Virus record (IMG/VR): IMGVR_UViG_2617270976_000012
Span: 1-48,151 of that record
Direction: 5' to 3' (one strand)
From: a virus
Lineage: Duplodnaviria; Heunggongvirae; Uroviricota; Caudoviricetes
DNA: 48,151 bases
Part shown: piece after piece, positions 4,749 through 6,536 of the stretch
Numbering within the stretch: the stretch's first letter is position 1
Layout: every line of letters starts with the position of its first letter
Translations under genes and position numbers: made by a program
Notes under the pieces: model-generated
The model's database searches: none
Seen by the model: the letters and a program-made list of their open reading frames with translations, nothing else
What the model was told of the DNA's origin: nothing

Positions 4749-4783
4749 AATTAAAAACTGTTTTGTGTCAACAGTTTTTAATT
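4749..4783. promoter_or_regulatory. Palindromic operator-like site at the promoter of the leftward dicB-type operon
   Basis: Inverted repeat TTAAAAACTGTT-n7-AACAGTTTTTAA; a related palindrome lies in the repressor/cro intergenic region. Confidence 0.4.
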
Positions 4784-4837
4784 GTTGTATTGGGCAAAAA
4801 AACTCCCTCGAATGAGGGAGTGTGAAAATTGTTCAGT

Positions 4838-5125
4838 TCAGATAGGGAAGGGAAATTGTCGGCGGGCATGCACAATATTTGCAATTTCAATGCTTGAAGC
4901 TGCTACTCGGTACAAAACGATATAATTAGGGTGAACCACAATTTCCCGCAAACCGGATACTCGATCACTTGGCGGATATAGATATGGATGCTCAGAGAGA
5001 GCTAAAACAGACGTTTCAATCCGTATTTTTAGTCTGCGTGCTGCAGGAATATTTTCCTTAGCAATATAGGCTACGATCTGACGCAAATCATCGCGAGCAG
5101 ATGGTAGCCACAAAATGGGTAACAT
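4838..5125 (-). CDS. parE2: ParE/RelE-superfamily type II toxin (ParE2-like)
   Basis: 95 aa with ParE-like pattern (W..A..DL..I..YI, C-terminal basic region); start overlaps antitoxin stop; the 1/2 paralog cannot be distinguished from sequence alone. Confidence 0.7.
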   Translation of the reverse strand: MLPILWLPSARDDLRQIVAYIAKENIPAARRLKIRIETSVLALSEHPYLYPPSDRVSGLREIVVHPNYIVLYRVAASSIEIANIVHARRQFPFPI

Positions 5126-5316
5126 TACTCGCTCCTGTTAGTTACAGCAATTTGAGCAATAAGATTCTCCATTTCAGCCATTACCTCATCATGTGGAATT
5201 GAGGGACGAGGGTCAGCAAGGCTTGACGCCACTTTAGCGCGTAACCATTCGTTGTAACTGTTTTCTTGTTCGGTAGTTTCGAATTCTGAAACTATCGGAG
5301 AAAGGGCTGTACTCAT
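5125..5316 (-). CDS. paaA2: Small antitoxin (PaaA2-like) partner of ParE
   Basis: 63-aa acidic protein directly upstream of and overlapping the ParE-like gene; matches the PaaA2 antitoxin arrangement. Confidence 0.6.
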   Translation of the reverse strand: MSTALSPIVSEFETTEQENSYNEWLRAKVASSLADPRPSIPHDEVMAEMENLIAQIAVTNRSE

Positions 5317-5343
5317 GGCATAACTCCTCTTCTTGTACTGTGG

Positions 5344-5745
5344 TCACGCCCGGCGGCTTTTTTGTGCCGCCAACCACCGGGCAATGGTTTCTTCCATTGA
5401 TTTTTTCTTGTCTTTGATTTCTTGAAGCATTTTTTCTTGGTCTTCCTCTGGAAACGCACTAAAAGCCTGGAGCAGTTCGCGTTGACGAGGACCAATTTTC
5501 ATCGTGTCAGGGGTGAAAATTTGCTCCCCCTCTTCAGGAGGCAATAAAAACCAATGCAATGGATGCCCTGTAACCTCAACCAGTTTATCCAAACTTGAGG
5601 CTTTAGGTGTAGCCTTACCGCTGACCCATTGTTGAACAGTTTGTTGTGTCACACCAATTCTACGGGCAAGCTCAGCCTGGCTCCATCCAGTTTCCTGAAG
5701 AAGCTTGCTGATTCTGTACATAGATACTTCTAGGGCGTTCATCAT
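5344..5745 (-). CDS. paaR2: HTH (XRE-family) prophage repressor, DicA/PaaR2-like
   Basis: N-terminal HTH WSQAELARRIGVTQQTVQQW; divergent from a Cro-like gene; co-oriented with the downstream TA pair. Confidence 0.7.
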   Translation of the reverse strand: MMNALEVSMYRISKLLQETGWSQAELARRIGVTQQTVQQWVSGKATPKASSLDKLVEVTGHPLHWFLLPPEEGEQIFTPDTMKIGPRQRELLQAFSAFPEEDQEKMLQEIKDKKKSMEETIARWLAAQKSRRA

Positions 5746-5785
5746 TATTCAATTTTACAGGTAAATACTGTTAAAAGCATCACAA

Positions 5786-5816
5786 TAAAAAACTGTTGAT
5801 TGTGTACAGTTTTTTA
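5786..5816. promoter_or_regulatory. Palindromic operator-like site in the divergent repressor/cro promoter region
   Basis: AAAAAACTGT-n10-ACAGTTTTTT between the repressor start (5745) and the cro-like start (5855). Confidence 0.4.
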
Positions 5817-5854
5817 TTGTAGGCTTTGCTTATAGTTTTTTAGAGGAGAGCAAA

Positions 5855-6127
5855 ATGCTAGATAGCACTCGCGAAAAAATTAGGCAGAAATACACTCAAG
5901 CTGAAATAGGTCGTTATATGGGGGTCGCTCAACAGACAGTTTGGCAATGGTTTAGCTTTGACGTTCCCCCAAAGCAGGTAATTCCGTTATGTCAGCTAAT
6001 GAAGTGGGAAGTTACCCCGCATGAAATTCGCCCTGATATTTATCCTAACCCAACCGACGGTTTACCTGTTGGATTCAAGGTTAACACATCAAATGCACCG
6101 GAGTTGATTCATGAAAATCAAGCATGA
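5855..6127 (+). CDS. ydaS: Cro-like HTH regulator (YdaS-like)
   Basis: 90 aa, HTH YMGVAQQTVWQW; divergent from the repressor gene. Confidence 0.6.
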   Translation: MLDSTREKIRQKYTQAEIGRYMGVAQQTVWQWFSFDVPPKQVIPLCQLMKWEVTPHEIRPDIYPNPTDGLPVGFKVNTSNAPELIHENQA

Positions 6128-6536
6128 ACACATCCGCATGGCGATGAATGCCTGGGCGCGTCCTGATGGCGAAAAAGTTCCAGTAGCTGGAATAACCCAG
6201 GCTTATTTTGAGTTGGGTATGACGTTTCCTGAACTGTATGACGACAGCCATCCGGAAGCCCTGTCTCGTAATACCCAGAAAATTTTCCGCTGGGTAGAAA
6301 AAGACACCCCTGATGCGGTTAAAAAAATTCAGGCGTTGTTACCGGCGATCGAAAAAGCAATGCCGCCTCCACTGGTGGCCCGAATGCGCAGCCACAGTTC
6401 GGAATATCACCGGGAGCTTGTCGAGCGACGGGAGCGCCTGGTGAAAGATATCGATGAGTTTGTTGCGGCAGCGATCGTGTTGTTCGATCAGATGAATCGT
6501 GGTGGTCCGGCGGGAAATGCCGTGGTGGCGCATTGA
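6111..6536 (+). CDS. ydaT: YdaT-like regulator (CII-analog position)
   Basis: 141 aa starting MKIKHEHI; immediately follows and overlaps the cro-like gene. Confidence 0.5.
   Translation: MKIKHEHIRMAMNAWARPDGEKVPVAGITQAYFELGMTFPELYDDSHPEALSRNTQKIFRWVEKDTPDAVKKIQALLPAIEKAMPPPLVARMRSHSSEYHRELVERRERLVKDIDEFVAAAIVLFDQMNRGGPAGNAVVAH

Follow-up and report, generated by a model that had tools for sequence, protein, structure and literature searches.

The stretch between positions 4742 and 6536 of the IMG/VR virus record IMGVR_UViG_2617270976_000012 (48,151 nucleotides [nt] analysed as a whole, here called the window) very probably makes up the region for immunity (lysis-lysogeny) in a lambdoid Escherichia coli prophage of the Qin/Rac/CP-933P type, in which the genes of a toxin-antitoxin (TA) pair, PaaA-ParE, are carried in the repressor operon. 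The original prediction for this DNA, an immunity switch built around such an operon, is supported by a layout equal to the one in the immunity region of O157 cryptic prophage CP-933P, which comprises paaR2-paaA2-parE2 and ydaS-ydaT (Jurenas et al., 2021; PMC8630535). As it is unrelated to CP-933P in its repressor head, Cro-like protein and operators, the locus is, as judged from its sequence, a heteroimmune relative of CP-933P, the architecture itself having already been published. Gene identities, homology, site positions and site conservation were established directly in this analysis; binding, promoter activity, the leaderless start, toxicity and addiction are ascribed to the locus by extension from experiments on the CP-933P homologue.

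An open reading frame (ORF) scan reproduced exactly the five ORFs and the gene order that had been proposed (Table 1). The toxin aligned over its full length with crystallised ParE2 of E. coli O157 (PDB 5CW7, E = 1.2e-37, 67% identity) and scored 59 bits against Pfam PF05016 (ParE_toxin, cut-off 23); since the identity to a crystal structure is 67%, the ParE fold claimed for it can be taken as settled. Directly upstream of parE, the small acidic protein anticipated as its antitoxin matched PaaA2 (PDB 3ZBE, E = 1.5e-22) and carried PF21217 (PaaA2, 76.9 bits) as its sole domain, with no DNA-binding domain. Both genes are under strong purifying selection, with nonsynonymous to synonymous substitution ratios (dN/dS) of 0.05 for parE (compared with the related locus L003) and 0.04-0.06 for paaA (compared with its closest diverged relative). 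The closest ParE relative found, P0012 of L003, is 85% identical and comes from a source other than O157. Regarding the start/stop overlaps attributed to the repressor operon, paaA and parE do overlap by 1 nt (TAATG), whereas the repressor gene and paaA are 27 nt apart, paaA having its own ribosome-binding site (GAGGAG); on the opposite strand, 17 nt are shared by the Cro-like gene and ydaT.

Table 1. Genes, promoters, operators and terminator of the immunity region in the window (operators, PR, PRM and terminator are predicted; aa, amino acids; bp, base pairs).
Feature	Position	Strand	Description
ydfA-like gene (DUF1391)	4413..4643	-	Pfam PF07151; first gene of the PL operon
PL-like promoter	4742..4771	-	-35 TTGACA (4771..4766), 18-nt spacer, -10 TAGATT (4747..4742)
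Operator OL1	4747..4761		ACAATTAAAAACTGT; fills the PL spacer; site at equivalent position in L014 (Salmonella) and L017 (Raoultella)
Operator OL2	4771..4785		ACAGTTTTTAATTGT; abuts the PL -35 on its upstream side
Intrinsic terminator	4795..4821	-	ACTCCCTCATTCGAGGGAGT then T7; hairpin 4802-4821, GC-rich, between parE and the left palindrome
ParE-family toxin	4838..5125	-	95 aa; PDB 5CW7/5CZE, Pfam PF05016
PaaA-family antitoxin	5125..5316	-	63 aa; PDB 3ZBE, Pfam PF21217
CI-like repressor, DicA/PaaR family	5344..5745	-	133 aa; Pfam HTH_3 and C-terminal domain
Putative PRM -10	5752..5757	-	TAAAAT; 6-nt distance to the repressor ATG
Operator OR3	5757..5771		ACAGGTAAATACTGT; lies within the PRM spacer; offset unchanged in L014, L016 (Serratia) and L017
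Operator OR2	5782..5796		ACAATAAAAAACTGT; centre at about -44 relative to both the PRM start and the putative PR start
Putative PR	5796..5825	+	-35 TTGATT (5796-5801), 18-nt spacer, -10 TAGGCT (5820-5825)
Operator OR1	5806..5820		ACAGTTTTTTATTGT; fills the PR spacer
Cro-like regulator, YdaS family	5855..6127	+	90 aa; Pfam PF15943 (YdaS_toxin)
YdaT operator OM	6104..6121		TTGATTCATGAAAATCAA; spans the ydaT start codon
YdaT, CII-like regulator	6111..6536	+	141 aa; PDB 8BT1, Pfam YdaT_toxin

Pairs of PaaA-ParE type are also widespread in Alpha-, Beta- and Gammaproteobacteria (L019-L098; e.g., L072:2653-3132 and L081:2695-3159). Some of the PaaA ORFs found there, read from putative start codons, apparently reach about 150 aa and show an N-terminal extension lacking a Pfam domain, and these extended forms bear on the question of whether PaaA has lost a DNA-binding domain.

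In CP-933P, the TA pair was able to stabilise an unstable plasmid; this stabilisation, together with post-segregational killing, is the only experimental phenotype of the homologue (PMC8630535). On the basis of these experiments, addiction, that is, stabilisation of the prophage or of its immunity region, would most likely be the role of the pair in the window: expressed in lysogens from the rexAB slot, it would leave a cell that has lost the prophage or the immunity region to be poisoned as the labile PaaA decays. It has to be considered whether the pair could instead be chiefly anti-phage, acting in abortive infection or superinfection exclusion as a counterpart of RexAB and not as an addiction module. 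The map of sites and genes does bear out the proposed location of the pair in the lambda rexAB position, between the repressor gene and OL and on the predicted repressor transcript, and in relatives this slot is occupied by alternative cargo, as in a lysogenic-conversion hotspot. However, in a search of the PADLOC defence models at E <= 0.01 no family was matched by ParE or PaaA, nor by the alternative cargo genes, and the killing phenotype of the homologue also points away from a mainly anti-phage function, which we therefore regard as unlikely, even if addiction and anti-phage roles are not mutually exclusive.

The repressor is built of an XRE-type helix-turn-helix (HTH) head (residues ~10-67) joined to a PaaR/DicA C-terminal domain. 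Its similarity to PaaR2 (42% identity, E = 6e-20) covers residues 37-133 only, and in the PDB search the N-terminal domain structures of PaaR2 (7NKV and 8C3L) were not matched; the matches obtained were to generic HTH domains, the best being the 434 repressor (E = 2e-5), confined to the HTH. DicA of Qin aligned end to end (28% identity), and the C-terminal motif ELLxxFxAxPExxQ was common to the window repressor, DicA and PaaR2. The protein can thus be assigned to the PaaR family by its C-terminal domain and is not an orthologue of PaaR2 overall; the earlier description of it as PaaR2-like holds for the C-terminal part, whereas the HTH head is of a different type. Furthermore, only HTH families were found in it by Pfam, with no S24 peptidase domain bearing an Ala-Gly cleavage site, so that RecA-mediated self-cleavage would not be expected, a remark that was also made for PaaR2 (PMC8630535).

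Orthologues of this repressor were identified in Salmonella (82% identity), Serratia (77%) and Raoultella (69%), all of them with the recognition helix (T/A)QQTVQQW and in loci with the same ydaT-ydaS/repressor layout. In none of these loci does the slot hold paaA-parE. It is occupied in Salmonella by a gene whose 112/120-aa product matches EACC1 below the threshold (L014:3077-3415 and L015:3053-3415) and in Raoultella by one for a 133-aa protein without a Pfam match (L017:3030-3431), and in Serratia it is a stretch of about 1 kb where no gene was called (L016:2900-3893). Because the orthologous repressors keep the operator sites, in Serratia only partly, but lack the TA pair, these loci support the view that the protein would be first a prophage repressor, not a dedicated TA regulator, with paaA-parE as cargo in a rexAB-like slot. 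Such a view has already been proposed for CP-933P, where the TA pair is regarded as inserted into the immunity region and PaaR2 as the prophage repressor (PMC8630535).

The same comparison makes it highly unlikely that the three genes form a self-contained three-component TA system, in which the HTH protein would be the detached half of an antitoxin autoregulating the TA operon. This is how paaR-paaA-parE was originally described (Hallez 2010, as summarised in PMC4803016), and it agrees with the lack of a DNA-binding domain in PaaA and with the weak matches of the repressor HTH to HipB-type antitoxins. Nevertheless, not only are the helix and the OR/OL layout maintained in Salmonella, Raoultella and Serratia without the pair, but a second operator pair lies on PL, which would drive unrelated prophage genes; in Qin, PL/ydfA comes directly after the gene of the family member DicA; and in 80 other bacterial species PaaA-ParE pairs form modules of two genes, and no PaaR-like gene lies directly upstream of them.

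The two related palindromes are real and slightly larger than originally delimited (4749-4783 and 5786-5816). The left one (4747-4785) has perfect arms of 16 nt and the right one (5782-5820) of 15 nt; the two share 82% identity, lie 1035 bp apart, and contain the only two perfect matches to AACTGT-N9-ACAGTT in the 48-kb window. Each palindrome arm corresponds to a 15-bp pseudo-dyad, ACAR-N7-YTGT, of which there are three in the 109-bp region between the repressor and Cro-like genes. This pattern had eight matches in the window where 2.8 were expected, five of the eight being in the two control regions; when an AT-only spacer was required and one mismatch was allowed, six matches were obtained against 0.57 expected, a number that was reached in 0 of 100 shuffles. 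The predicted functional units would thus be five 15-bp operators, three in OR and two in OL, rather than two long palindromes.

The conservation of these operators was judged on the cross-genus orthologues. In Salmonella and Raoultella, the OR sites are found at identical offsets (2426, 2450 and 2475, with the repressor start at 2501), and OL consists of two sites about 24 bp apart, downstream of the repressor; spacers (7 bp) and flanks are different there, and one long palindrome is no longer formed by the sites. Since spacers and flanks vary and the ends are kept, the conserved unit is the 15-bp site. The idea that the long AT-rich palindromes are structural elements (hairpin terminators or recombination sites) and not operators is extremely unlikely: 4747-4785 is listed as a terminator-like hairpin by the scan and cruciforms or hairpins with stems of 15-16 bp could arise from both palindromes, but G-C pairs make up only three of the 16 in the stem, a proper terminator, rich in GC, is located 17 nt upstream, OR3 stands alone as a third site, and Salmonella and Raoultella keep only the ACAR...YTGT ends of the 15-bp units and not the palindrome, which indicates selection on half-sites and not on hairpin potential.

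The recognition helix of the repressor (TQQTVQQW) is also compatible with such operators, as it conserves three glutamines of the 434 repressor (TQQSIEQL). In the 434 repressor, these glutamines (Gln28, Gln29 and Gln33) contact bases and read ACAA, the operators being 14-bp sites of the form ACAA-N6-TTGT; the half-site in the window is likewise ACAA-like. With ACAR/YTGT half-sites but a site length of 15 bp, the switch would function in the manner of 434 without being a member of that system.

Regarding transcription, PL is a strong match to the consensus and the only promoter-like match between 4550 and 6250 in the promoter scan, and its TTGAC and TAGATT elements are invariant in the orthologous regions of Salmonella and Raoultella. 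It is predicted to drive a left operon of ydfA and dicB type. The geometry of the putative PR equals that of PL, with TTGA(Y) and TAnnCT conserved in the orthologues. For PRM, four genera keep the sequence CCTGTA(A/G)AAT at a distance of 6 nt from ATGATG, and none of them has a Shine-Dalgarno sequence; because the -10 lies 6 nt before the ATG and no such sequence is present, the repressor mRNA is predicted to be leaderless. OR2 abuts the -35 of PRM, which is poor, and its location at about -44 would suit activation.

Since the intrinsic terminator precedes the left palindrome, the repressor-paaA-parE operon stops short of OL/PL, in the manner of lambda cI-rexAB; hairpins were present in the same position in L003, L007, L009 and L014. 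The transcribed PL leader (4576-4730, CCCACCCCGCCCCACAGAACGCAGGG...) is 97% identical to CP-933P, and leader-like sequence follows parE in other relatives irrespective of their operators.

The divergent Cro-like and YdaT-like genes that had been proposed were recognised by Pfam as YdaS_toxin and YdaT_toxin, both on the plus strand. The recognition helix of the Cro-like protein (QQTVWQW) resembles that of the repressor (QQTVQQW), and similar helices fit a competition of the two proteins for the same sites. This protein had no detectable similarity to YdaS of CP-933P. YdaT, on the other hand, was 86% identical to YdaT of CP-933P and matched its structure (8BT1, E = 1.9e-81), and the OM box had one match in the window and the same sequence in CP-933P. 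It is the site, TTGATT-N6-AATCAA, on which YdaT has been footprinted where ydaS and ydaT meet (Prolic-Kalinsek et al., 2023; PMC9986795).

To compare both regions, CP-933P (Sp12) was located in an O157:H7 genome by means of a published primer sequence. The two loci have the same gene order and strands, with a terminator and then a second operator/promoter set after parE, and both repressors share the C-terminal domain and lack the S24 peptidase domain. Alignment with PaaR2, PaaA2 and ParE2, which had been suggested as a check, gave 42% (residues 37-133), 73% (residues 1-56) and 67% identity, respectively. In contrast, the HTH heads of the repressors are non-orthologous, and the operators are GTTTAGTAA-type repeats in CP-933P, which were absent from the window region, versus ACAR-N7-YTGT in the window. 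Moreover, the C-terminal 7-18 residues of PaaA and the N-terminal helices of ParE diverge, which suggests that the window encodes a separate cognate pair. At the DNA level, the regions shared with CP-933P were, besides the PL leader, 5183-5409, with the 5' part of paaA and the 3' end of the repressor gene (75%), and 6100-6551, with the YdaT box and ydaT (84%); no DNA similarity was found for OL with parE, or for the HTH region with OR and cro.

Given these protein identities (one of them partial) and the different operators, the possibility that the window is the O157 CP-933P copy was rejected, and the caution of the original prediction on this point was justified. Among other relatives, L009 carries a CP-933P-type repressor and YdaS, and L003 and L007 have further repressor/operator arrangements. 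In L007 from E. coli (4977-5840), two tandem PaaR-like repressor genes precede paaA-parE, a PaaR2-like one of 123 aa and a window-like one of 153 aa.

The behaviour of the CP-933P locus has been described experimentally: PaaR2 is CI-like, binds OR and represses PR and PL, and its mRNA is leaderless according to 5' RACE; PRM is repressed and the operators were footprinted; YdaS is Cro-like, YdaT is CII-like and activates a PRE-like promoter; and the locus is bistable (PMC8630535). By analogy, transcription of the repressor gene in the window would run leftwards from a PRM that is weak and probably gives a leaderless mRNA, with paaA and parE on the same transcript, which would stop at the terminator. 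Repressor and Cro-like protein would compete for the 15-bp operators; the former would shut PR and PL and, bound at OR2, possibly stimulate PRM, and the latter would act in reverse, resulting in a bistable switch. YdaT may bind the TTGATT-N6-AATCAA box at the cro/ydaT junction and boost leftward transcription into the repressor operon, like CII.

Some observations weigh against this interpretation or limit its support. PR and PRM fall below the threshold of the consensus scan, so that their positions are putative. Only one of the three Serratia OR sites strictly fits the pattern and two deviate, and operators of 15 bp, instead of the 14 bp of phage 434, make the analogy with 434 only partial. 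In addition, the cassette (4700-6103) is nearly invariant across E. coli strains, with 0-7 differences in 1.4 kb, and variation within this species therefore says nothing about constraint on the operators. Finally, neither state of the CP-933P switch showed detectable ParE2 activity.

The likeness extends to other lambdoid elements. Qin of K-12 has a DicA-DicC control region, with DicA as a full-length homologue of the repressor, a small divergent Cro-like gene and a left operon ydfA...dicB with 82-91% identical DNA; it differs in having no TA pair, with ydfA following dicA after 166 bp, in its operators, and in having only a truncated YdaT-like gene, ydfX. As in 434 and lambda, the three OR sites are spaced 24-25 bp centre to centre, with the outer operators over PR and PRM, a second operator set at PL and cargo between the repressor gene and OL, and a leaderless repressor mRNA, here predicted, is known for lambda cI. 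Differences are the operator length (15 bp versus 14 bp in 434 and 17 bp in lambda), the finding of only two sites at OL, and the lack of a RecA-cleavable C-terminal domain in the window repressor. The RacR-YdaS-YdaT region of Rac has the same functional layout, with regulators of the YdaS and YdaT families (Pfam; PMC8630535), although there is no TA pair in its repressor operon and its proteins are probably only distantly related.

The five-gene module was found, at a coverage of at least 80%, in 490 of 5,426 complete E. coli genomes (~9%). None of these 5,426 genomes had the whole window, the best reaching 81% coverage at 94% identity, and positions 1-522 had no match in any top record. Because the entire window is absent from every complete E. 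coli genome, it is, on this comparison, a mosaic lambdoid prophage. The SHP24 prophage region of E. coli, integrated next to potC, was 99.9% identical in the immunity region only, and the head and tail genes in the window differ from those of strains having the same immunity cassette. Among deposited phages, the immunity type of the window was found in none, and only Escherichia phage Evi had this kind of ParE, of PaaR2 type. Neither the operator sequences nor the RefSeq accessions of the proteins were found in a full-text search of the paper collection available.

Divergence between strains starts exactly at the YdaT box (position 6104), and strain Nord58 (L013) combines the window-type immunity cassette with the CP-933P allele of YdaT (WP_000693943.1); taken together, this onset and this combination indicate that the box marks a recombination junction. 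It could also be thought that paaA-parE and the 3' end of the repressor gene, which encodes the PaaR/DicA oligomerisation domain, make up a recombining unit moving between heteroimmune lambdoid prophages, an idea that we consider rather doubtful.

If the proposed arrangement is true, a TA pair wired to PRM would police the immunity region, killing recombinants or segregants that replace or lose it, and possibly also act on superinfecting phages. The design of CP-933P, with a TA pair in the prophage repressor operon, is not a one-off. The TA cassette was found with at least four repressor/operator types, and in other genera the slot next to this type of repressor holds different cargo. In this context, TA-plus regions of E. 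coli and TA-minus regions of Salmonella, Raoultella and Serratia would be natural controls for stabilisation and for lysogen protection, and the prediction of five operators offers a simple and falsifiable model of the switch. Current understanding is unchanged by these data. Routine annotation had already named the parts correctly.

The neighbourhood of the module is that of a lambdoid genome, with O-like and DnaC-like replication genes to the right and ydfA, dicB and an exonuclease gene to the left, an order also found in CP-933P and Qin; lysis, head and tail genes take up the remaining window. The RefSeq form of the ydfA-like gene, from the annotation of the near-identical SHP24 region, is shorter (4407-4562). 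In the left operon, dicB is located at 3319-3507(-); beside it, no Rfam match to the DicF small RNA was obtained even at E <= 1. An ORF of 128 aa without a Pfam match (4027-4413, minus strand) stands in the position of ydfB/ydfC of SHP24 and Qin.

A type I TA locus, hok/sok, was detected at 12061-12236 (sok RNA, 112 bits), hokD being annotated in the related SHP24 prophage, and represents a second addiction-type module of the same prophage. Furthermore, the late-gene regulatory region (16388-16634 and 17475-17684) contains three tRNA genes and an STnc100 small RNA (146 bits), and a weak STnc100-like match was also seen at 3475-3693(-).

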